Shown: positions 5,297 to 33,564, numbered from the stretch's first letter. The stretch: 42,021 nt of DNA from a virus (UHGV-0390817); one strand, 5' to 3'. Notes: generated from the sequence alone by a model not told the origin. Made by a program: numbers and translations.

Positions 5297-5468
5297 GTGT
5301 AATCCCTCATAAGACAGGCCTGTACTTTAACGGGACAATGCCGCAGGGTATGCAAGCAGTGATGTATCTGGTTTTATCCCCCATGACGTTTTCCAGATAC
5401 GATTAGGGCATCCTAGAGATAGGGTGTCCTTTTATTATGAGTAGCTTATACTCATTAAATATTCTAAT

Positions 5469-5497
5469 TTGACAGAATCGAACATTTGTTCTATACT
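5469..5497 (+). promoter_or_regulatory. promoter of the accessory island: -35 TTGACA, 17-bp spacer, -10 TATACT
   Basis: Consensus -35, exact 17-bp spacer and a 5/6 match at -10. A second extended -10 TGaTATAAT lies at 5586-5594, just before the RBS gggggac and the ATG at 5626. Confidence 0.55.
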
Positions 5498-5625
5498 GTG
5501 GTTACGAAGAGAAGATGTGGATGTGTTTTTGTAAGATTTGTGGAATTGGGAGGGGGATATTTGTATATTCTTTCCATTCGGTGTGTGATATAATGTAAGA
5601 AAAACGTCGAATTGGGGGACATAAA

Positions 5626-6609
5626 ATGGATAAAAAGCAAAGTGCAAATAATGAGAAAAAGGTATCAGTGGCTAATTTTAATGTAGTTTTTATGGGGGAC
5701 AAAGATGAGAGTCCGTTACTGGATTATTTTGACACTATTTTAATGCCGGCTTTGAAAAGTGGAATTACAAGAAGCCAAGGGGATAATACCTATTTGCTTA
5801 TGGATATTGAAGTTAATCAGGATACGGATTGTGAATATATATTGACAGGGTTGATTGTTAAAAGTACAGTTCTTGAAGTTAAATCTATGTTTGATGAGAA
5901 CGGGAATTTGGTCGAAAGAAATGATGTTTATCCAACGGCTCCATTTTCTACTTTTATAATTTACCTAAAAAATCATAGAATGATTTTAGTTGAAAATCAA
6001 AAAGGAAGTCCATCTTTGGACAGCTTCCGCTCAACTGTTAAGTATGTTTTAGATACGTACGTTGCAAGAGAGAACCATGCAAGAATGGAGCAGGAGAAAG
6101 AGCAGCTTCCAATTCCTCTTGTCAGTGTCGTGGGAATACCGCCTAAGGGTGGCATGATAGCGGCATTAAAACAGGTAGAAAAAATTTCAACATTGACTTT
6201 GAAGTTTTATCCGTTGAATGGTGATGGAGATATAGATTTATCTGAGATAATGAGCGGGATATCAAAAGAATTGCGTAGAAAAATAGGAAGTGATCGGGGA
6301 TCGGTAACATACCGATCACCAAAGAATATTAATGGAGTTATAGAGGTAGTAGAGGCAGCGGAAGGTACAGTTGAGCCTATTGTGGTGGCGAAGTATCCAG
6401 GAAGAAAAGGGGAATCCACGATTAAGTATAATGAAATATCTGATAGGAGAAAAATGCGCGTACCCGATGGAGAGAGAAATGCAGAGTTATCCAGCATGAT
6501 TAATCAGGGAAAAGAAATTGACAGTATAAATTATACTAGTGAGGAAAATAATAAAATATATTTGAGAAATCAAGGGAAAATAATAAAATTTGTTCGTAAG
6601 GAAAAATAA
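5626..6609 (+). CDS. unknown 327-aa cytoplasmic protein, first gene of the AT-rich accessory operon; candidate defence or abortive-infection component
   Basis: Clear RBS and ATG. GC content is far lower than the surrounding phage genes (roughly 33% against about 52%, estimated by eye). No recognisable catalytic motif. It is co-operonic with a 4-TM protein. Confidence 0.75.
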   Translation: MDKKQSANNEKKVSVANFNVVFMGDKDESPLLDYFDTILMPALKSGITRSQGDNTYLLMDIEVNQDTDCEYILTGLIVKSTVLEVKSMFDENGNLVERNDVYPTAPFSTFIIYLKNHRMILVENQKGSPSLDSFRSTVKYVLDTYVARENHARMEQEKEQLPIPLVSVVGIPPKGGMIAALKQVEKISTLTLKFYPLNGDGDIDLSEIMSGISKELRRKIGSDRGSVTYRSPKNINGVIEVVEAAEGTVEPIVVAKYPGRKGESTIKYNEISDRRKMRVPDGERNAELSSMINQGKEIDSINYTSEENNKIYLRNQGKIIKFVRKEK

Positions 6610-6631
6610 ACAATTTTGGAGGGGGATGATT

Positions 6632-7264
6632 ATGGATAATTTAAATCTTGATAATATTGAACAATTACTTCAATCTGAACCTTCTGAAAAGTTACTTTTT
6701 AAAGCAATCAAAGCTCTTAAAGTTGAAAAGAAGAATAGGAAATCACGATGGATATTAGTAGTTATATGTTGTATCCTCGGTTCCATAGTCGGAATTCATA
6801 AAGAAACAGTCACTATTTTCAGAGAAAGTATAGATGCTATTTTAAATGTTTCACTAGCACTTTTCGGAGTAATTTTCACTGGATATTCCTTGCTACAAGC
6901 CTTTATGAATAAACAGATGTTACTTCAACTTCTAAAAGACACAAAAGTATGTGACGGAGGAGAAAAGAGTAGATTACAAGATATCAATGAGAATTTTGTA
7001 TATTTAATGCTATTGTATGTTATTGCGATAATTGTAACATTGATTATGAAAATAGTGATGTTTTGTTTGCCTGACAGTTTTACATTATTTTTAAACATGA
7101 TAGTAAATAATGTGATTGCAGTAAGTTTAATTGCGGTTTATTTTATTTTTATTGGAATAATACTGTGGAGGACAGTTAGTTTCGTTTCTACAATTTTTCA
7201 ACTGTTCAATATATATGCTGTGACAAGAGTTCTTGAAATGATAGATGAGGAAGAAAAGCCATAA
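6632..7264 (+). CDS. small 4-TM membrane protein (about 210 aa), second gene of the accessory operon; candidate membrane effector
   Basis: The RBS ggaggggg precedes the ATG at 6632, 22 nt after the upstream stop. Four hydrophobic helices are present (ILVVICCILGSIVGI, NVSLALFGVIFTGYSLL, VYLMLLYVIAIIVTLIMKIVMF, VIAVSLIAVYFIFIGIILW). Confidence 0.7.
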   Translation: MDNLNLDNIEQLLQSEPSEKLLFKAIKALKVEKKNRKSRWILVVICCILGSIVGIHKETVTIFRESIDAILNVSLALFGVIFTGYSLLQAFMNKQMLLQLLKDTKVCDGGEKSRLQDINENFVYLMLLYVIAIIVTLIMKIVMFCLPDSFTLFLNMIVNNVIAVSLIAVYFIFIGIILWRTVSFVSTIFQLFNIYAVTRVLEMIDEEEKP

Positions 7265-7289
7265 TTTATCATATAAAAGGCGATGATTA

Positions 7290-7319
7290 GGGGCCACCTC
7301 CGGGCGGCTCTTTTTCTTT
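7290..7319 (+). terminator. putative intrinsic terminator closing the accessory operon
   Basis: A stem GGCCACC/GGCGGC(T)C with one A-C mismatch, followed by TTTTTCTTT. Confidence 0.4.
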
Positions 7320-9269: not shown

Positions 9270-10888
9270 GGTGGCTGAACAACATGAATGAGACTATCAA
9301 GCGGGGCATCCGCAGCTGGCTGAACGTGGTGCCGGCCAGCGGGAACTGCATCCAGATTAACGAGGTCCTGGACTTCGAGGCCAATGCCATCCGAAATCGC
9401 ATCTGGTACCGTGGTGATGGTAACGAGCTGGAGCAGATGTATCAGCAGGCTCCAGAGTACGCTGACAAATACAAGTTCTGGGCCAGTAGGTGTACACCGG
9501 GTATGGAGATGCGCAAGATACATACCGGCCTGCCCGGGCTGATTATCCGTATCCTGTCGGCTATCGTCCTGAATGACATGAACGATTTTGATTTTGCAGG
9601 TAACGACCAGCAGCGGCAGCTGTGGGAGGACATTGCAAAGGATAATAAGTTCGCTCGTAAGCTGGAGAAGGCCTTGAAGGAGGTCCTGTACATCGGGGAC
9701 GGCGCCTTCAAGGTCACGGTTGACACGACCGTCAGTGAGTATCCAATCCTGGAGTGGTATCCAGGAGAGCGGGTTGAGATTGTCCGGAACCGGGACCGGG
9801 TGAAGGAAGTTGTTTTCAAGACCCCCTACAAATCCGGGTATCAGCAGTATGTCCTGTATGAGCACTATGGATATGGCTACATCAAGAATGAGCTATGCAA
9901 GGGTGACACGCCGGTGCCCCTTAATGCCATCGATGCCACAAAGGGAATAAAAGATACGATGTTTGATGATACAGTCATGCTGGCCGTACCCTTGCAAGTC
10001 TATGAATCCACCAAATACGAGGGACGCGGTGGCAGCATTTTTGATGGTAAGCTGGACAGTTTTGATGCCTTTGACGAGGCCTGGTCCCAGTGGATGGATG
10101 CGCTGCGTGCTGGTCGGGCCAAGACGTACATACCGGACTGCCTGGTGCCACACGACCCGGAGACAGGGAAGGTCATCCGGCCGAACCCATTTGACGACCG
10201 ATATTTTGCTTCTGATAATGATATGTCAGAGGATGCAGATAACAAGGTCAATGTGGTGCAGCCAACTATCCCCCACGATAGTTATCTGGCGTCCTATTGT
10301 ACAGCTTTGGACCTGTGCCTGCAGGGCGTTATCAGCCCATCCACTCTGGGGATTGATGTCAAGAAGCTGGACAACGCCGAAGCGCAGCGCGAAAAGGAAA
10401 AAGCTACCCTGTACACCCGGAATGCTATTGTGGAGGCTCTGCAGGAGACTCTTCCGGAGCTGGTCAGCGCGGCAATCAACGCCTGCAATATCCTTCATGG
10501 TAAGGGGGTGGAGGAGGTCAAAGTGGATATCCCCTTCGGTGAGTACGCAAACCCATCCTTTGAGAGCCAGGTGGAGACCCTGGCCAAGGCTCGGCCTGGT
10601 GCCCCCATGATGAGTATTGAGGCCCAGGTAGAGGAGCTGTATGGGGACACCAAGGACGAGAAGTGGAAGCAGGAGGAGACAGCACGGCTGAAAGAGGAGC
10701 AGGGGATTGCGAAAGTGGAAGAACCCGGAATCAATACGGCTGCTGGCAGTTTTCGACTTAACATGAAGGGAGGAAAGCCAGATGAAGGTCAAGGTAATGA
10801 ACCGTCTGTACCAGATGAGCCAGAAGGAGTACCAGGGGCTGCTGCAGGTGGCAAAGGAACAGGTGCCATTGGGAATCTACGCAATTGA
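9266..10888 (+). CDS. portal protein (SPP1 gp6-like)
   Basis: 540 aa directly after the large terminase. The C-terminal tail is rich in Gly, Pro and Glu and looks disordered. Confidence 0.8.
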   Translation: MRWLNNMNETIKRGIRSWLNVVPASGNCIQINEVLDFEANAIRNRIWYRGDGNELEQMYQQAPEYADKYKFWASRCTPGMEMRKIHTGLPGLIIRILSAIVLNDMNDFDFAGNDQQRQLWEDIAKDNKFARKLEKALKEVLYIGDGAFKVTVDTTVSEYPILEWYPGERVEIVRNRDRVKEVVFKTPYKSGYQQYVLYEHYGYGYIKNELCKGDTPVPLNAIDATKGIKDTMFDDTVMLAVPLQVYESTKYEGRGGSIFDGKLDSFDAFDEAWSQWMDALRAGRAKTYIPDCLVPHDPETGKVIRPNPFDDRYFASDNDMSEDADNKVNVVQPTIPHDSYLASYCTALDLCLQGVISPSTLGIDVKKLDNAEAQREKEKATLYTRNAIVEALQETLPELVSAAINACNILHGKGVEEVKVDIPFGEYANPSFESQVETLAKARPGAPMMSIEAQVEELYGDTKDEKWKQEETARLKEEQGIAKVEEPGINTAAGSFRLNMKGGKPDEGQGNEPSVPDEPEGVPGAAAGGKGTGAIGNLRN

Positions 10889-26659: not shown

Positions 26660-27109
26660 ATGAAGATGGATAAGGTGAAAGCAGCGTTTGTTGCAGCATT
26701 TAGCATGATTTTTGGGTGGCTGGGAATTCTGGCAGTTCCAGTGTTGATACTGGCCGGATTGAATTTCACAGACTACATAACCGGCATCCTGGCATCAAAA
26801 CGGCGCAATGAGCTGGTGACCAGTGACAAGGGACTGTGGGGCATCGTCAAGAAGATAGGTATGTGGATATTGGTAGGTTTAGGATGGGCTATGGACGTGC
26901 TGATTAATTACGCCAGCCAGTATGTAGGACTGTCTATTAAACTGCCCTTCGTGGTTGCTACCATCGTGGCCGTGTGGCTAATATGTAATGAGATTATTTC
27001 TATCCTGGAGAATCTGCTGGATATCGGTGTGGCCATGCCACCGTTTTTAATGCCGCTGGCCAAGATGATTAAGGGTCAAGTGGAGGATAAGACAAAAATG
27101 GATGCCTGA
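26660..27109 (+). CDS. holin (TcdE/phage_holin_4_1-like)
   Basis: 149 aa with three hydrophobic TM segments and a charged C-terminus, directly upstream of the endolysin gene. Confidence 0.8.
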   Translation: MKMDKVKAAFVAAFSMIFGWLGILAVPVLILAGLNFTDYITGILASKRRNELVTSDKGLWGIVKKIGMWILVGLGWAMDVLINYASQYVGLSIKLPFVVATIVAVWLICNEIISILENLLDIGVAMPPFLMPLAKMIKGQVEDKTKMDA

Positions 27110-27153
27110 GAGAAGGTGGTCCGTATATCTCCCGGTCACGGGGTTAAGCGGGT

Positions 27154-27183
27154 GTTGCGATATCGCAACTTGTGACGTCACAA
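27154..27183. promoter_or_regulatory. copy 2 of the 16-bp palindrome GTTGCGATATCGCAAC, immediately followed by a related 14-bp palindrome TTGTGACGTCACAA
   Basis: Read directly. The two share the pattern TTGyGA-yr-TCrCAA. Confidence 0.6.
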
Positions 27184-27191
27184 CTTTTCAT

Positions 27192-27222
27192 GGCCTGGGA
27201 GTGGTCCCGGGCCTTATTTTTT
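27192..27222 (+). terminator. strong intrinsic terminator between the holin and endolysin genes, ending 5 nt before the endolysin RBS
   Basis: A 9-bp stem GGCCTGGGA/TCCCGGGCC with one G-U pair and the loop GTGG, followed by TTATTTTTT. Confidence 0.6.
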
Positions 27223-27239
27223 AATTGGAGGAAAACACT

Positions 27240-28013
27240 ATGAGTAAAACATCAGCAGGATTAATACAGCACTGTAAGGGTAAACTGGGAACTCCCTATG
27301 TCTACGGCGCCAAAGGCGAGGTCCTTACCCCGACCATCCTGGACAGGCTCGCCCGGGAGAACCCAGGCACATACACATCCGCCTACAAGGCCAAGGCGGC
27401 CAGGTACATAGGCCAGCGCTGCACGGACTGTTCTGGCCTCATCAGCTGGTACACCGGACGTATCCGCGGCAGCTATAACTACCATGACACAGCCGTGGAG
27501 CGGGTAGATATCGACCACCTGAATGAGTCCATGACCGGCTGGGCGCTCTGGAAGCCGGGGCATATCGGGGTATACATAGGTGATGGATACTGCATTGAGG
27601 CCAAGGGCATCAATTACGGGACCATCAAGTCCAGAGTGGCGGTCACACCCTGGCAGAAGGTCCTAAAGCTCTGCGACATCGACTATACCCCGGTCCCAGT
27701 GACATACACCCAGGGCTTCCAGTCGGCCGCAGACGGCCAGCGCTGGTGGTATCAGTTTACAGACGGCAGCTATGCGGCCAATGGCTGGTACTGGCTCCGG
27801 GAGGCCACGGACGGTACCTGCGGCTGGTATCTGTTTGACAGCGAGGGCTATATGCTGACCGGCTACCAGGTGGACCCTGCTGGTGAGGCCTTCCTGCTCT
27901 GTCCAGTCAAGGGGTCTGACGAGGGGAAGTGCATGATTACGGATGCCAGAGGAGCTCTCCGGATTGCGGAGGAGTACGACATGGTAAATCGACGGTACGT
28001 GTTTAATTGGTAG
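27240..28013 (+). CDS. endolysin: N-terminal NlpC/P60 (C40) peptidase plus C-terminal CW_binding_1-type cell-wall-binding repeats
   Basis: The catalytic Cys motif CTDCSGLISWY and the His motif GHIGVYIGDGY are present. C-terminal repeats ANGWYWL and GWYLFDSEGYMLTG follow. The RBS ggagga precedes the ATG at 27240. Confidence 0.85.
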   Translation: MSKTSAGLIQHCKGKLGTPYVYGAKGEVLTPTILDRLARENPGTYTSAYKAKAARYIGQRCTDCSGLISWYTGRIRGSYNYHDTAVERVDIDHLNESMTGWALWKPGHIGVYIGDGYCIEAKGINYGTIKSRVAVTPWQKVLKLCDIDYTPVPVTYTQGFQSAADGQRWWYQFTDGSYAANGWYWLREATDGTCGWYLFDSEGYMLTGYQVDPAGEAFLLCPVKGSDEGKCMITDARGALRIAEEYDMVNRRYVFNW

Positions 28014-28022
28014 ATTACCGAA

Positions 28023-28041
28023 GGGCGCTGCAATAGCGCCC
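28023..28041. terminator. hairpin GGGCGCT-gcaat-AGCGCCC between the convergent endolysin and Spo0A_C genes; a possible bidirectional terminator
   Basis: A perfect 7-bp GC-rich stem. The flanking T-runs are weak. Confidence 0.35.
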
Positions 28042-28049
28042 TGACTTCC

Positions 28050-28391
28050 TCAATCATAATAATGGAGTACAACATAATGAGCCAGCGCATCAATAAAGGC
28101 GCCGTTCCGCGGCTTTTGTGCCAACTCAAAGCCGAAAACCTGGTTTAAAAGATTCCGGTCTCCATGGAGCCAAATAGTATTAATGATGGTGCGTATATTG
28201 CGTTCTACACATCCCACAGATGTTTGGTAGCGGGCGGCAATTTCTACGTATAGCCCTTTGGATATGTAGGTAAGCAGTTCTGGGTTCGCAATAGCGCGGA
28301 TTACACCATAAATAGTATAGCGGAATCCTACGTAGGAATTATTGACGCCAAGCCGTCGAAGCAAGTTACTGGTTTCTCTTTCGTATTTCAT
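28050..28391 (-). CDS. stand-alone Spo0A C-terminal (DNA-binding, Spo0A_C) domain protein with no receiver domain
   Basis: The 113-aa product LLRRLGVNNSYVGFRYTIYGVIRAIANPELLTYISKGLYVEIAARYQTSVGCVERNIRTIINTIWLHGDRNLLNQVFG...KPRNGAFIDA aligns motif-by-motif with the B. subtilis Spo0A effector domain (GVPAHIKGY...ELLGSITK.LYPDIAKK..TTASRVERAIRHAIEVAW..G...FG...KP.N.EFIA). A strong RBS ggaggg precedes the ATG at 28391; the track ORF extends further upstream without an RBS. Confidence 0.75.
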   Translation of the reverse strand: MKYERETSNLLRRLGVNNSYVGFRYTIYGVIRAIANPELLTYISKGLYVEIAARYQTSVGCVERNIRTIINTIWLHGDRNLLNQVFGFELAQKPRNGAFIDALAHYVVLHYYD

Positions 28392-28615
28392 GCTAGCCCT
28401 CCTAAAATTTTTTACATTATAAAAGTAACTATTAGGAGGGGGACTATCAAGGGAAGGGGGACAACAAAAAGTTACAAAAGGTATCATAAAATGCGGGAAG
28501 ATAAATGGGGAATGATTCTTTTGGGGTAGGCCGGCATACATAGGGTCTGGTTCAGATAGATTTCCAAAAAAACATACTGACATTGCCTTAATGCCATGCT
28601 ATAATAAAACCAGAA

Positions 28616-28645
28616 AAGCCTCCGGAACCATGATTCCAGGGGCTT
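28616..28645 (-). terminator. imperfect hairpin followed by a T-rich run on the minus strand; likely the integrase terminator
   Basis: AAGCCTCCGGAA...TTCCAGGGGCTT, with TTCTGGTTTTATTAT following on the minus strand. Confidence 0.3.
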
Positions 28646-28692
28646 AATCTAATCATATGTTATTGACATCCGGCGGGCCGGACTGTAATAAC

Positions 28693-30153
28693 CTATGATA
28701 TATAAAAATGAATATGTAAATGCCCTTGACTGCGGTCAAAAACAATCTCTTTGACTATCTTGCGGAGGGCATTCCCTTTTATCTCATAACTGATATTTGG
28801 GTCTGCCAGGATCTCATGCACATGCGCAATCTGGCGCATGATATCTTCCTTGCTTGGAACCTTGGCAGGAGACTGTTCTGCCTGCCTGCGGAGTCTTTCG
28901 GCATCAGCCATGAGTTCTTCCCTTTCAGCCTTCAGACGGAGCTTATTCTGCTTATATTCCTCCAGGGTGTCAATTTCATTCTCGTAAGCTTCCCTGATAC
29001 GCCGCTCCTTGACTTCTAAGCGGGCAAGTGCCTCCTGAATGGCGACTTCTTCGGCGTTTACAGCATCATCGGTTTTTTGGATGTATTCATATTCCAGTTC
29101 ATTTGTTTCAAGGACTTCTTCCAGAGATTCAATCACAGCTTTTTCCGCCAGGTGTACGGCCAGGCAGCAGGAACCCGGATGCATCCCCTTTGCATACTTC
29201 CAGCACTGGAAGAAGTCAGGCCGCTTCTTCTGGTCATTGGAACGATTGTAGCCAAGGCTGCCGCCGCATATGCTGCATTTGAGCAAACCGGAAAGCCAGT
29301 GGACATTGTTGGAAACCTCCCGGCGTTTCTGGGGCCGGTATTCCTTTTCAATCCGCTTCTGAACATCGTCAAATAGGGAGGTGACGGAGGAACGTACCTC
29401 GTGGGTGCCCTGGAAGGAATACCCATTCCATATGACCTCGCCAATATAAAAGCGGTTGGCAAGAATCCGGTTAATGCCCCGGCGGTCGAATAGGTTGCCG
29501 CGGCGGGTCCGGTATCCTCTGGCATTGGCAGCCCTGGCCGTGGCGGTCATATCCTTCCCGCTATGGTAGGTCTGGAAAATATATTCAACGATGGCATATG
29601 ATTTTTCCTCCACGACGAAAGGCTTGCCTTCCCCCACAGCCCGGTAGCCGAGGCAGGGGGTGGCCTGATAGCCTTCGCGGAGGGCCTTTTCCGTCATACC
29701 GCGCAACACTTCGCCGGAGAGGTTGATGGAATAATATTCGTCAAACCATTCTATTATGGTTTCGATTAGCCGGCCAAACATGCCCTCCATGATGGGTTCC
29801 GATACGCTCTTAATTTCTACATCACATTTTTTTCTCAGGATGCCTTTGTAGAAGGTGCTTTCCTCCTGGTTTCTGGCGAACCGGGAGAACTTCCAGAGAT
29901 AGAGCCGCTTAAATGGGGCCGGCTTCTGTGATTTGGCAATGGCTATCATGCGCTGGAACTCTGGCCGGTTGTCTGCTTTGCGGCCGGAGATTCCTTTCTT
30001 CTCAATAAATATGTATTCTTTGGGAATTATAAAACCGTCCGCCTTGGCAGCGTCCATGATGACGCGTATCTGGGCATCCGGAGACAGCTCTGTCTGATCG
30101 TCTGTGCTGACACGAACGTAGGCGGCGCCGATTTCTAGTGGTGTTGCTGGCAT
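28693..30153 (-). CDS. large serine recombinase (phage integrase)
   Basis: The N-terminal resolvase catalytic domain IGAAYVRVSTDDQ carries the catalytic Ser. A recombinase domain, a zinc-ribbon (CSICGG...C) and a C-terminal coiled coil follow. The start is taken at the Met after the RBS aggagatga; the track ORF starts at 30210. Confidence 0.9.
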   Translation of the reverse strand: MPATPLEIGAAYVRVSTDDQTELSPDAQIRVIMDAAKADGFIIPKEYIFIEKKGISGRKADNRPEFQRMIAIAKSQKPAPFKRLYLWKFSRFARNQEESTFYKGILRKKCDVEIKSVSEPIMEGMFGRLIETIIEWFDEYYSINLSGEVLRGMTEKALREGYQATPCLGYRAVGEGKPFVVEEKSYAIVEYIFQTYHSGKDMTATARAANARGYRTRRGNLFDRRGINRILANRFYIGEVIWNGYSFQGTHEVRSSVTSLFDDVQKRIEKEYRPQKRREVSNNVHWLSGLLKCSICGGSLGYNRSNDQKKRPDFFQCWKYAKGMHPGSCCLAVHLAEKAVIESLEEVLETNELEYEYIQKTDDAVNAEEVAIQEALARLEVKERRIREAYENEIDTLEEYKQNKLRLKAEREELMADAERLRRQAEQSPAKVPSKEDIMRQIAHVHEILADPNISYEIKGNALRKIVKEIVFDRSQGHLHIHFYIS

Positions 30154-30376
30154 TATATCATCTCCTGTTCCTATCATGTATATGAGTTTAGGGGATGTTT
30201 CAATTCTCATTTCGGTCCATATTATAACCCATATTACAGCCTGTAAGATTTTGGTGAGCTTTGAAAAAAGGGTATAAAAAATACGCCCCTTGCCAGGACG
30301 CTCCAGGAATGATATAATTTACTTGCTTAGGGTAATTATATCTTCCAGGCGTACCTGGTAAGAGAAAATCTATGTG

Positions 30377-30418: not shown

Positions 30419-31099
30419 TTATTTTGTGGCAACAAATGTGGCCGATTTATTAGACCAGAAACTCGGAGAAAATTTAATCTCAAGAGTTTTCCAATCTTCA
30501 GGAACCTGATATGCTATAACGCCGTTCATTTTTTTACCTGCAGCAACAGAACCATCTAATTGGTTCTTTCCTTTTCCTTCAGGAGCCTGCAAGCCAAGAA
30601 TATCTTGAGTGACAGAATAGTCATCACAATATGCCTCGAAGCTCATCATTGAGCTTACGGATATATCCTTATCTGAATTATTGGATATTTCAAATTCACA
30701 TAAGACAAAAATATTTCCTTCGTCTGGTTTTAAGAAGTCTGAGCCTTTTGATTCTGTTGTTCCAAGCAGTGATACTTGAACGCCCTTAATGTCTGCAACT
30801 TCACCCACATCAAAATTGGTTTTTTCGGCAACTGTAGATTCGGGGGCAGTTGTTTCTTCTTTTTGGTTTGAATTGTTGCTTGGGGTTGTGGTAGCAGTGG
30901 CATTGGAAGGGGTTTCCTCTTTGCTTTTACTGCCGCCAAAGCAAGAGCCAATCAAACCAATCACAACTACTATAATAATAGCCGTAAGACACCCTCCTGG
31001 ACCTTGTTTTTTTCTGCACTGTGGACATATCTTTGCTCCATAAGGTATCTCAGTTTTACAGTGCTTACAGATTTTTGTTGTTGGTTTTTCTTTTCCCAT
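30419..31099 (-). CDS. membrane-anchored protein: N-terminal zinc ribbon (CKHCK...CPQC), one TM helix, Ser/Thr-rich linker and a DUF4352-like beta-sandwich domain; a lysogeny-module moron
   Basis: The motifs are read from the translation. The region is AT-rich and lies on the same strand as the integrase and repressor. Confidence 0.6.
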   Translation of the reverse strand: MGKEKPTTKICKHCKTEIPYGAKICPQCRKKQGPGGCLTAIIIVVVIGLIGSCFGGSKSKEETPSNATATTTPSNNSNQKEETTAPESTVAEKTNFDVGEVADIKGVQVSLLGTTESKGSDFLKPDEGNIFVLCEFEISNNSDKDISVSSMMSFEAYCDDYSVTQDILGLQAPEGKGKNQLDGSVAAGKKMNGVIAYQVPEDWKTLEIKFSPSFWSNKSATFVATK

Positions 31100-31164
31100 A
31101 CTCTTTTCCTCTTTTCATTTGTTTTATTAAAAGCCATAGGCTCTTTAATCATAAATCATTCCCA

Positions 31165-31905
31165 TTATGAATTTAATAACTGTTTTTTCTTGGTTTCAAA
31201 CTCTTCTTCGGATATGGCTCCCATATCCAATAATTCTTTTAGGGCTTTAATGCCCTTGAGGGCATCTGTGGTATTTTTAGATACTTCGGCAACTGATTGT
31301 TCTTTTTTAATTTGAAAACACCTTATTTGAGCATCTATTTCAGTAGTGCAGGCTATGGAAATAGGGAATATCATTCCATCATCAATGCGCCGAAGTTTCA
31401 AAACCGCGGTTCCGGCTTGCTCAAAATGCTGTGTCATTTGTCTGGAGTTAGATGACATATTTCCCTGTGTAGTAGATTTACCTTTACTTCCGGCGCCGAT
31501 TGCTGCCCCTACTGCTGTTCCGATTCCAGGCATCAATAAAGTACCTACGACAGCCCCCGCTGTCATTTTTCCGGCCTTTCCTTTTTTGACTGTCTGACTG
31601 CTACTGATTCCGGTGGTTTGTGTATTCGTCATGGAGCCATAAAGAGGTCCGTCCCAAGAATAATCTAGCAATTCATAAAGTCTATTTTCATCAACTCCAA
31701 AATAAATCAGGCCGTCTTCCTGGCGTTGTCGGATGGTGCAGGCTCCATTCATGCCAGCAGGCCCATTTTTAATAGTGATGAACGCGCTGACCTGGCTTTG
31801 TCTTCTAGTAGCCAGCTGTCTTTCTGAATCCTTCTTTGCTAATTCATTTTTTACCAAACCCGTTGCACCATCGGCGGCGCTTTTCATCAAATCTTTAAAT
31901 CCCAT
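31165..31905 (-). CDS. SHOCT-domain protein with a glycine-zipper membrane segment
   Basis: The C-terminus ALKELLDMGAISEEEFETKKKQLL matches the SHOCT motif. A central hydrophobic segment GAVVGTLLMPGIGTAVGAAIGAG is present. Confidence 0.55.
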   Translation of the reverse strand: MGFKDLMKSAADGATGLVKNELAKKDSERQLATRRQSQVSAFITIKNGPAGMNGACTIRQRQEDGLIYFGVDENRLYELLDYSWDGPLYGSMTNTQTTGISSSQTVKKGKAGKMTAGAVVGTLLMPGIGTAVGAAIGAGSKGKSTTQGNMSSNSRQMTQHFEQAGTAVLKLRRIDDGMIFPISIACTTEIDAQIRCFQIKKEQSVAEVSKNTTDALKGIKALKELLDMGAISEEEFETKKKQLLNS

Positions 31906-31930
31906 AACGAACCCTCCTCAATGTATAATA

Positions 31931-32641
31931 TTACAATGACTGTGCTCTCAAAGAACCCAGAATTATTCTCGTTGGTGACAGCAAATCATTAAATGGATAT
32001 GGTTCCTGGCTGGCCTTAGCATCGCATATAGGACAGATACAATCACCAGGTCGGTTATAAAAAGTCCGTCCACAGTAGAAACATTCGGTCTCAGCACAAA
32101 TAAACCTTTTAGACTTGGTTTTATAAAAGTAGCTATACATCGCCCAATCAACTGGATACATTTTGTGTGTGGCTCTGCTATACCATCTACGGTAAGCGGC
32201 AAAGGCATTATGAGCAGCTTCGTCCGACAATCCGAAATGTCTATGCACATCCCAAGCACTTTCGCAATGGCAGTAATGGATTACCATACTGGGAGCTAAT
32301 ACGTAGCTTGCAAAACAATTGGCTTCTTTCTCATAATAGTCCGCTTTGTAAGGATGCTCAAGCACTATATGACCCAGCTCATGGGCCAGTGAGAAGATAA
32401 TTCTATCTGATGGTTTATCTTCATTGTAAGCAACTGTCCGGCTAAATGGCTCAGTATATGCCTCGTCAGAACAGGAGGCACATAGTTCATATACTTCTGG
32501 ATTCTTTTCTTTCAATTCGCTGTATGTATAGACGTGATATCCATACTTTCTAATAGCTGAAATACAGTCAAATGGAAATTTCTTAAATTCACAAAAGGTA
32601 TATGTTTCTAGTACTTTTTTCAGTATAAAATCGTGATTCAA
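31931..32641 (-). CDS. ImmA/IrrE-family metalloprotease (anti-repressor protease)
   Basis: The HEXXH motif HELGHIVLEH is present. The gene lies directly downstream of, and on the same strand as, the XRE repressor, a classic ImmR-ImmA arrangement. Confidence 0.8.
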   Translation of the reverse strand: MNHDFILKKVLETYTFCEFKKFPFDCISAIRKYGYHVYTYSELKEKNPEVYELCASCSDEAYTEPFSRTVAYNEDKPSDRIIFSLAHELGHIVLEHPYKADYYEKEANCFASYVLAPSMVIHYCHCESAWDVHRHFGLSDEAAHNAFAAYRRWYSRATHKMYPVDWAMYSYFYKTKSKRFICAETECFYCGRTFYNRPGDCICPICDAKASQEPYPFNDLLSPTRIILGSLRAQSL

Positions 32642-32646
32642 TCAAA

Positions 32647-32970
32647 TCAGTCCTCATTATTTATTTCGGACAGTAGTTTGATTAGACGCATTTTCTGTTC
32701 AACAGACATCTGCTTACCATTTCTGGCCACAAGGCGTTCCACATCCGCATAAGTGGGTTCTGGAACCACCTTCTTTTCTCTATCGTCGAAGTCATCAAGC
32801 GACAACCCAAGAACATGAGCGATAGATTTAAGCGTTTCAAGTTTTGGGTCTTTTGTGGCACCGCTTAATATCTTATTCAACGTTCCCAGAGGGACTCCAG
32901 ATTTTTCAGATAATTCCTCCGTGGTTAATCCTAACTTTTTTTTGTATTCTGCAATTTTCTCCAGTCCCAT
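32647..32970 (-). CDS. XRE-family HTH repressor (cI / ImmR-like)
   Basis: HTH LTTEELSEKSGVPLGTLNKILSG. Transcribed divergently from a Cro-like gene across an operator-rich intergenic region. Confidence 0.85.
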   Translation of the reverse strand: MGLEKIAEYKKKLGLTTEELSEKSGVPLGTLNKILSGATKDPKLETLKSIAHVLGLSLDDFDDREKKVVPEPTYADVERLVARNGKQMSVEQKMRLIKLLSEINNED

Positions 32971-32992
32971 CCTTAATCCCTCCTACGGTAAT

Positions 32993-33021
32993 ATTTTACC
33001 GCCAAACGGTTTTTAAGTCAA
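32993..33021 (-). promoter_or_regulatory. leftward repressor promoter: -35 TTGACT, 17-bp spacer, -10 TAAAAT, read on the minus strand
   Basis: Reverse complements are found at 33016-33021 and 32993-32998. The RBS ggaggga lies 5 nt before the repressor ATG. Confidence 0.5.
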
Positions 33022-33031
33022 GCAAAATTTA

Positions 33032-33041
33032 CCGTTAACGG
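33032..33041. promoter_or_regulatory. operator O1: perfect 10-bp palindrome CCGTTAACGG
   Basis: Read directly. Confidence 0.6.
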
Positions 33042-33062
33042 AAAGAAAATGTAAAAAATGGG

Positions 33063-33091
33063 TTGACTTTTACCGTTAAAGGATATATACT
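33063..33091 (+). promoter_or_regulatory. rightward early promoter: -35 TTGACT, 17-bp spacer, -10 TATACT, with operator O2 CCGTTAAAGG (33073-33082) inside the spacer
   Basis: Hexamers and spacing are read directly. Confidence 0.6.
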
Positions 33092-33103
33092 TTCAATAAA
33101 TAA

Positions 33104-33113
33104 CCGTTAACGG
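33104..33113. promoter_or_regulatory. operator O3: CCGTTAACGG, between the -10 and the RBS of the Cro-like gene
   Basis: Read directly. Confidence 0.6.
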
Positions 33114-33130
33114 ATAGAAAGGAGGATAAC

Positions 33131-33340
33131 ATGTACTACCGTTTGAAGTTTGAAATTAGCAAAAGGGGATTTACAATAGAAAAATTTTCACTTTTGCTTA
33201 ATATTTCGGAAAAATCATTGCGGAATAAAATTAAGGGGTCAACAGAGTTTTCCTGGTCGGAAGTACTAAGGATTCGGGATTTGATTGACCCCACAATGTC
33301 CTTGGAGGAGTTATTTAAAAAAGAGGACAAAATTGCCTAA
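33131..33340 (+). CDS. Cro-like small HTH regulator
   Basis: 69 aa. HTH FTIEKFSLLLNISEKSLRNKIKG, divergent from the repressor. RBS ggagga. Confidence 0.7.
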   Translation: MYYRLKFEISKRGFTIEKFSLLLNISEKSLRNKIKGSTEFSWSEVLRIRDLIDPTMSLEELFKKEDKIA

Positions 33341-33348
33341 GCAAACAC

Positions 33349-33564
33349 ATGTTCGATAAAACAACTATACCACTATTACGTATGTGTGTCAATGAGAAAA
33401 GGAGGCGAGAGGGGATGAAGAGCATAGATAAAGTAATCAATTCTATTTGTGATTGGATTCAGGGTGAATTAAAACAGACAGGAAGCACGGAAGATTCAAT
33501 GATTCTTCCAGAAATGATAAAGGCGCTGGCCGAATTGGTGTCGGCCAGCTCGCAGGATTACTAA
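33349..33564 (+). CDS. hypothetical early protein
   Basis: 71-aa ORF. Confidence 0.4.
   Translation: MFDKTTIPLLRMCVNEKRRREGMKSIDKVINSICDWIQGELKQTGSTEDSMILPEMIKALAELVSASSQDY

Follow-up and report, generated by a model that had tools for sequence, protein, structure and literature searches.

The window analysed here, the whole 42,021-nucleotide (nt) stretch of viral DNA UHGV-0390817, carries on its minus strand a gene for the effector domain (C-terminal, DNA-binding) of Spo0A, sporulation's master regulator. The domain stands by itself as a protein of 113 amino acids (aa; MKYERETSNLL...HYYD), encoded at 28391..28050 with its stop codon at 28050-28052. By its gene content the window represents the whole genome of a temperate phage of siphovirus type, in the excised configuration. 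The Spo0A_C gene converges with the plus-strand lysis cassette (26660..28013), which comprises a holin gene (26660-27109) and an endolysin gene (27225-28013). Between the endolysin and Spo0A_C genes lies a perfect 8-bp hairpin with a 5-nt loop (AGGGCGCT/AGCGCCCT, 28022..28042), which is probably the terminator that both genes share. On the upstream side, after 300 nt of intergenic DNA, stands the minus-strand gene for a large serine recombinase, the phage integrase (28693..30210), with Resolvase, Recombinase and Zn_ribbon_recom domains and a match to phrog_95 (E=2.7e-86).

The initial annotation had described the product, from the sequence alone, as a Spo0A effector domain that stands alone and is carried by a temperate phage, and this was borne out by profile, sequence and structure searches. 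The Pfam profile PF08769 (Spo0A_C), suggested at that stage as a check, matches the protein significantly and end to end (E=3.8e-29; 101.2 bits, the gathering cut-off being 25 bits; profile positions 2-103 of 104), and a match was also found to phrog_24603, a PHROG group of phage proteins of ~111 aa without known function (E=9e-24). When the PDB was searched with phmmer, the sole matches were 1fc3 and 1lq1, both Spo0A C-domains (E ~1e-9), and in the alignment to these entries the motifs ELL..I.K.LY..IA, VER.IR, FG and KP.N.FI, singled out beforehand, are all conserved. An AlphaFold2 model built with 18 homologues as input has a mean predicted local distance difference test score of 92.4 and contains helices at residues 2-14, 21-35, 38-41, 45-54, 59-76, 79-86 and 96-111. 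Foldseek returned chains of 1lq1 and 1fc3 alone for this model, with template modelling (TM) scores of 0.80-0.88 and root-mean-square deviations (rmsd) of 1.6-2.1 A; the best superposition was on 1LQ1, the Spo0A-DNA structure (TM 0.88, rmsd 1.9 A, 111 columns). The model thus shows the six-helix effector fold with its helix-turn-helix.

The receiver domain is absent, as had been proposed. In the Pfam profile search no receiver with a phospho-acceptor Asp was found in the 113-aa product, which is wholly Spo0A_C, and the match to TIGR02875, the Spo0A equivalog model, is confined to positions 149-253 at the C-terminus and reaches 57 bits against a cut-off of 200, below the level of an equivalog. 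The ratio of nonsynonymous to synonymous substitution rates (dN/dS) is 0.04-0.22 in comparisons with eight relatives, which shows strong purifying selection on the gene. None of the PADLOC defence-system models matched the protein or its neighbours.

The start codon is preceded by a Shine-Dalgarno sequence read directly as AGGAGG (28398..28403, minus strand), 6 nt before the ATG, and relatives have a GGAGG-type sequence at the same place. Homologues are nearly all 111-113 aa long and begin with MKYE or MNYE. A longer open reading frame (ORF) of 177 aa, starting at 28583, had been named as a product that would change the interpretation, and it was rejected: its 64 added residues match no domain or family and are not conserved as coding sequence, and the DNA upstream of the 113-aa start aligns among relatives as a conserved non-coding promoter region. 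This longer frame is open in the window and in a close prophage relative (locus L009), and was picked by one gene caller (P0001), but hundreds of homologues of 111-113 aa share the shorter start and its ribosome-binding site. The low dN/dS likewise speaks against a decaying Spo0A_C fragment. That the gene is non-functional, either as such a fragment or because its true product is the 177-aa ORF, is very improbable.

An exhaustive phmmer search of 1.84 billion representative sequences placed the protein in a large family, with 4276 clusters at 50% identity (E<=1e-3), of which 425 remain at E<=1e-10; the best 150 matches are almost all single-domain proteins of 100-190 aa. All named hosts of family members are Clostridia. 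Across diverse members the recognition helix carries the signature C/S-V-E-R-N/D-I-R-T, where Spo0A has R-V-E-R-A-I-R-H. Residues E213, R214 and R217 of Bacillus subtilis Spo0A, which we take from the literature on the 1LQ1 structure to be those that read the 0A box, correspond to E63, R64 and R67 of the phage protein, are kept there and are invariant in the family. The K-P-x-N motif is also kept, with a 3-residue deletion just before it relative to Spo0A. In helix alphaE, G227, F236 and G237 (B. subtilis numbering) are retained and four positions differ from B. subtilis Spo0A (I229->R, S231->L, S233->N, V240->L); these four are presumably sites of sigma-A activation, as the mutagenesis literature on B. 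subtilis suggests.

Recent truncation of a host spo0A gene was considered as the origin and ruled out. Because the protein is only 28-29% identical to Bacillus Spo0A-C and falls within a very large family of stand-alone proteins that has a signature of its own and is found in core chromosomes of Lachnospiraceae as well as in prophages, it is not a clipped host spo0A. By these comparisons the gene is a member of an old stand-alone family common to chromosomes and phages, for which the term "truncated spo0A" is a misnomer. In a few relatives 2-6 Spo0A_C domains follow one another in tandem within a single polypeptide; examples are P0121 (four copies in 454 aa), P0160 (six copies in 849 aa), P0125 (439 aa) and P0151 (1003 aa). 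No description of such polypeptides was found in the literature searched; their arrangement would suit head-to-tail binding on tandem 0A-type boxes.

The gene also travels as a discrete unit. At more than 15 further loci, only the gene, its hairpin and ~104 nt of upstream DNA (28009/27111..28495) are homologous to the window, and position 28495 is the upstream edge of homology common to chromosomal and prophage relatives. In several prophages (L005-8, L016, L033-37) the cassette stands directly after the endolysin gene at the prophage end, with other sequences beyond, and in L049-51 a 63%-identical homologue is found in the same slot, flanked by a VanY-type endolysin/holin and a tyrosine integrase; the place between lysis genes and att is used in unrelated prophages with a different integrase type and a different endolysin. 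Other copies are chromosomal. One, in loci L001-4, is set in the core chromosome, where it is flanked by an ABC-transporter operon and NUDIX/infC-rpmI-rplT and phage genes are absent within 10 kb; further copies lie beside dpaA/dpaB-asnB or beside melibiase/AraC and signalling genes. Several genomes carry two or three Spo0A_C copies.

Two observations concern the DNA that adjoins these cassettes. The chromosomal cassettes are followed by an ORF of 63-67 aa with no Pfam match (10484-10687 in L001-L004; 63 aa in L052-54), which the phage copy lacks. In L005-L008, which are four related prophage ends, ~500 bp with a 60-aa ORF is common to all past the cassette edge (9388-9893 and beyond), followed by four different gene sets: Mrr and ABC transporters; OLD-TOPRIM with a UvrD-type helicase (Gabija-like); ArdA and a methyltransferase; and two-component regulators. 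The latter region may represent a hotspot for variable cargo or defence genes, or may reflect different insertion sites.

The putative promoter of the phage cassette (28416..28450, minus strand) consists of a -35-like TTGATA (28450..28445), a 17-nt spacer and TACTTT (28427..28422), with an overlapping TATAAT (28421..28416). TTGATA and TAC(C/T)TT are conserved in alignments of relatives; a consensus scan did not call the site at its threshold. The cassette limits, the hairpin terminator, a pair of insulating hairpins described below and the position at the prophage end, with a promoter proposed from conservation, would suit a moron or lysogenic-conversion cassette, an autonomous transcription unit placed between phage modules and typically near att. 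The Spo0A_C gene would appear to be an autonomous moron-like cassette, with putative promoter, ribosome-binding site and hairpin, at the lysis/att end of a siphophage of Enterocloster-type Lachnospiraceae.

The promoter regions of the relatives contain sequences of the kind that Spo0A recognises. Boxes of the form TGTCGAA-N3-TGCGAA and variants were found upstream of stand-alone Spo0A_C genes over a range of 50-90% protein identity. At the more distant end (L017, L018, L021, L024, L027 and L030; 50-66% identity), the block TGTC(G)AA-N3-TG(C)GA..-N..-ATTGT.T is invariant in a diverged upstream region; it consists of tandem 0A-type boxes with 10-bp spacing that abut a TTG -35-like hexamer, ~74 nt before the ATG. 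Closer homologues have an inverted pair (TTCGCAT-TTT-TTCGACA in L012) and a forward pair, TGTAACT-TTT-TGTCGTC, ~12 nt upstream of the conserved TTGATA, and other relatives have GTCGTAT-TTT-GTCGTC or TGTCGGT-AGA-TGTCGGA. In L010-L015, L001 and L033-37 the 0A-type boxes lie at about -112 to -74 from the ATG. In the window, the position-matched sequence is a degenerate tandem, CGCATTTTATGATAC ... TGTAACT-TTT-TGTTGTC (28460..28495, minus strand), where relatives have TTCGCAT-N3-TTCGACA ... TGTAACT-TTT-TGTCGTC.

The perfect 7-mer TGTCGAA occurs in 9 of ~21 upstream lineages against an expectation of 0.012 per 160 nt (binomial P ~1.5e-12), although some of these lineages share ancestry and the count is partly conservation and not independent recurrence. 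Among 274 ORFs of the same loci the perfect 7-mer was found for 12, eight of which are Spo0A_C genes, leaving ~4 of ~255 controls. This distribution indicates that the boxes upstream of family members are under selection, and would link the family to 0A-box recognition through autoregulation, through phosphorylated host Spo0A (Spo0A~P), or through both.

The phage genome itself, where the initial annotation had proposed to look for 0A boxes, contains no excess over chance. TGTCGAA occurs twice (3.2 expected), both times inside the tape-measure gene, the looser TGNCGAA 20 times (17.8 expected), and the composite TGTCGAA-N3-TGCGAA with <=3 mismatches 8 times (8.7 expected). No 0A box was found in the repressor/early switch region at 32970-33350 or upstream of the Spo0A_C gene. 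Any target of the protein would therefore be on the host.

The attachment site of the phage was mapped as well. The 48-bp attP (28652..28699) has imperfect inverted 23-nt arms (28652-28674 and 28677-28699) around a central dinucleotide (28675-28676), and overlaps the integrase stop codon. [Clostridium] clostridioforme AGR2157 (L009) and two IMG/VR entries (L038, L039) contain prophages ~89% identical to the window. These are collinear with it from the lysis genes through Spo0A_C to ~28683, a point inside attP, with host DNA beyond, as at an attR-type junction; the host ORF found there is the C-terminal 180 aa of a Mn-catalase/CotJC (Pfam Mn_catalase, 1e-34; 9175-9735 in L009). At the attL-type junction (L042, 1990-2782) the integrase stop is followed by GTTATTACAGTCCGGCCC|TCCATATTGG..., a 37-aa N-terminal fragment of cotJC, CotJB (PF12652) and a cotJA-like gene, and in both L042 and L043 an integrase identical to that of the window abuts the cotJC 5' fragment, with cotJB and the cotJA-like gene next to it. 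The predicted attB, CATTTCGCCGTCCGGCCCTCCATATTGGCTCAT, has an exact match in three gut metagenome contigs. In L055 (13299-14581) it lies inside an intact 219-aa cotJC at QYGGPDGE, with cotJB and a cotJA-like gene upstream, and the same ABC-transporter gene adjoins cotJC in L055 and L009. Since both junctions and an intact empty attB were recovered, the phage integrates into the spore-coat gene cotJC. The preprint bioRxiv 10.1101/2021.11.22.469490, citing Abe et al. 2013, names this gene as a phage or transposon insertion locus in spore formers.

Two other interpretations of this region were discarded. Position 28495 is the edge of the mobile cassette and not an attP crossover, and the Spo0A_C copy is not the duplicated 3' end of an integration target, the target being cotJC and not a Spo0A_C gene.

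With attP placed between them, the integrase and Spo0A_C genes are adjacent in the excised phage only. In the lysogen they occupy opposite ends of the prophage: Spo0A_C is its outermost gene on one side, where it diverges from the cotJC 3' fragment, and the integrase is on the other. The earlier placement of the gene on the lysogeny side, next to the integrase and with a strong ribosome-binding site, thus holds for the strand and the ribosome-binding site; the adjacency is true of the excised genome only, and even there attP and hairpins intervene. These two overlapping terminator-like hairpins with T-runs (28639..28610, minus strand), between attP and the cassette promoter, would insulate the Spo0A_C gene from integrase read-through in the excised form. 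On the plus strand a strong outward promoter-like site, CTGACA-17-TATAAT with TG (28577..28605), points into the cotJC 3' fragment in the lysogen. That fragment (minus strand in L009) has a phage-supplied in-frame ATG, giving an ORF that begins MLLTS-GGPDGE... and retains 186 aa of CotJC from GGPDGE onward. The prophage might therefore still yield a truncated CotJC; the spacing of the Shine-Dalgarno sequence appears poor.

The rest of the genome is that of a temperate phage. The remainder of the lysogeny module (30419..32970, minus strand) encodes a DUF4352/DUF5067 Sie-like protein, a SHOCT protein, an ImmA-type M78 peptidase and an XRE repressor, and in the direction of transcription the minus-strand order is XRE repressor (32970..32647), ImmA-type, SHOCT, DUF4352/Sie-like, integrase (30210..28693) and Spo0A_C. 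Genes for an SNF2-type helicase, SSB, small and large terminase subunits, portal, major head protein and tape measure are present, together with those for a RecB-like exonuclease, an Enc34-type ssDNA-binding protein, PolA and a primase-helicase. A low-GC island at 5400-7300 (0.37-0.40 against ~0.50 elsewhere) lies immediately upstream of the small terminase gene. Its two ORFs, of 327 aa (5626-6609) and 224 aa (6590-7264), matched nothing in Pfam, PHROG or PADLOC, and they may be a second moron or anti-defence cargo. Near-identical prophages have Enterocloster clostridioformis and E. bolteae as hosts. Among the cultured phages of INPHARED no relative of the Spo0A_C protein was found; the search returned only 15 uncultured human-faecal contigs, all below 36% identity.

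The interpretation favoured here, held tentatively at somewhat under an even chance, is that the protein is a phosphorylation-independent binder of 0A-type boxes that perturbs the host Spo0A regulon from a moron-like cassette, more probably through competition or delay than by driving the host into sporulation. DNA-binding domains of Spo0A, when isolated, need no phosphorylation to bind legitimate targets (PMC3485338). With its Spo0A-like fold and the kept equivalents of E213, R214 and R217, the phage protein would bind tandem 0A-type boxes (TGTCGAA-like, 10-bp spacing) without phosphorylation; made in the lysogen, it would be a signal-independent occupant of Spo0A-controlled host promoters, and this occupancy would shift the entry into sporulation and related stationary-phase programmes. 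Interference or delay seems likelier than forced sporulation because most of the alphaE positions on which sigma-A activation depends in B. subtilis Spo0A are changed and because other phage-borne regulators of sporulation (Rap, Spo0E, AbrB and sigma F/G homologues) damp or delay the process. The DNA specificity of the protein, its expression in the lysogen and any effect on sporulation are inferred, and the manipulation of host development that the initial annotation regarded as deliberate is plausible.

Several points weigh against this interpretation. Identity to Bacillus Spo0A-C is low, and three positions of the recognition helix differ from B. subtilis Spo0A (R211->C61, A215->N65, H218->T68) and are constant in the family, so that the specificity may differ from the 0A box. 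In the lineage of the window (window, L009, L038, L039) the boxes upstream of the gene read CCCGCAT-TTT-ATGATAC and TGTTGTC, with CG->TG changes; they are degenerate there, and the link to 0A boxes therefore rests on the relatives. The recognition helix is unchanged in the same lineage, and a perfect TATAAT has arisen at 28421..28416. One tentative reading of the degenerate boxes is lost regulation, giving constitutive expression. Moreover, 88%-identical chromosomal paralogues (L001-4) are already present in such hosts, and the phage copy may add little, or the regulon of the family may be unrelated to sporulation. The literature searched yielded no experimental work on phage-encoded Spo0A-domain proteins or on their stand-alone Spo0A_C counterparts in chromosomes.

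In a distinct explanation, possible though doubtful, the protein would be a generic small transcription factor of an old and diversified helix-turn-helix family of Lachnospiraceae, with its own regulon outside the sporulation decision and with the phage copy as exchangeable cargo, taken from the chromosome or shared with it. Such a protein might regulate a few host genes, as in lysogenic conversion, or only itself. The size, diversity and mostly single-domain make-up of the family, the presence of members in core chromosomal loci without phage genes nearby, the signature CVERNIRT of its recognition helix and the several copies per genome all agree with this. The boxes upstream of members are, however, exact copies of canonical TGTCGAA in a tandem arrangement with 10-bp spacing, the E/R/R residues that contact bases are retained, one chromosomal member stands beside the sporulation genes dpaA/dpaB, and every named host belongs to the Clostridia. 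The protein could also be a constitutive activator which, like sad67 or the free C-domain in B. subtilis, would force or accelerate sporulation, and the prophage would then be carried into spores. Free Spo0A C-domains do bypass phosphorylation (PMC3485338; PMC10294663). The retained G227, F236 and G237 of helix alphaE would suit activation, and the 0A boxes of the relatives abut the -35 hexamer, an arrangement that we compare with Spo0A-activated promoters. Forced sporulation is nonetheless unlikely, given the four substitutions at the presumed sigma-A positions, the small gain that a prophage splitting cotJC would draw from it unless excised, and the fact that known phage-borne sporulation regulators reduce or delay sporulation.

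The protein could also act within the phage, on the lysis-lysogeny switch or late genes, or as a recombination directionality factor (RDF) or other excision regulator of the serine integrase, coupling excision from cotJC to the state of the host. In the excised genome the gene directly adjoins attP and the integrase, which points in this direction, as does the splitting of a sporulation gene, since excision of SPbeta and skin from such genes is developmentally regulated. Yet the cassette accompanies quite different integration modules, some of them with tyrosine integrases, and stands by itself in chromosomes, so it lacks the co-inheritance with a cognate integrase expected of an RDF. The phage carries no 0A-type or composite sites above chance and none at 32970-33350, the gene lies outside the regulatory modules in a classical moron slot, and a survey of RDFs for large serine recombinases makes no mention of Spo0A or helix-turn-helix proteins. 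A role of this kind is quite improbable. An extended version of the favoured interpretation is speculative and rather unlikely as a whole. In it the stand-alone Spo0A_C proteins would form an unrecognised branch of the Spo0A circuit in Clostridia, independent of phosphorylation, switched on through their promoter boxes by host Spo0A~P or by the proteins themselves, and feeding back on 0A-box promoters. Temperate phages would have captured this module, and in the lineage of the window the decay of the boxes would have made expression constitutive in the lysogen, keeping the host from sporulation, or biasing it towards sporulation, for as long as the prophage occupies cotJC, which excision would restore.

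For many gut Firmicutes, spore formation determines how they persist and are transmitted. If the favoured interpretation is true, a single prophage gene acting at Spo0A DNA sites and bypassing the phosphorelay would be a compact rewiring of the sporulation decision. The case is a tractable one, with a complete excised phage, cultured hosts, attP and attB mapped in cotJC and candidate tandem TGTCGAA-type sites.

Genes of this kind have been known since 2023, when Schwartz et al. (mBio; PMC10294663) described truncated spo0A homologues in human-gut phages that retain the effector domain only and proposed that they may act independently of host signals. The gene in the window has the same effector-only make-up, belongs likewise to a phage of spore-forming Firmicutes and invites the same hypothesis, control of sporulation independently of phosphorylation. 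That study, as represented in PMC10294663, comprises 29 virome sequences and an alignment, and the IMG/VR contig ids found here are absent from its supplementary text. Relative to that account, the current work adds the location at the att end, the paralogues on chromosomes, the family's size, the promoters' 0A-type boxes and the integration site in cotJC, and with them a corrected evolutionary picture.

The phage may also be set beside better-known systems. Spo0A itself, as known from B. subtilis, G. stearothermophilus and C. difficile (1LQ1, 1FC3, TIGR02875), shares the six-helix fold, V-E-R-x-I-R and KP.N; the phage protein differs in having no receiver, in R211C/A215N/H218T, in the 3-residue deletion and in the alteration of most sigma-A-contact positions. 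Like SPbeta (spsM), skin (sigK), vfbin (spoVFB) and the yabG element of C. botulinum, the phage uses a large serine recombinase and an attB within a sporulation gene. Unlike these elements, it has a gut Lachnospiraceae host, is represented by a complete excised phage and carries a Spo0A-domain gene beside attP. Rap-Phr systems, Spo0E, AbrB homologues and sigma F/G-like factors are likewise homologues of host regulators on temperate phages of spore formers. Whereas those regulators act on the level of Spo0A~P or on later sigma factors, the phage Spo0A_C protein would act at the DNA sites of Spo0A.

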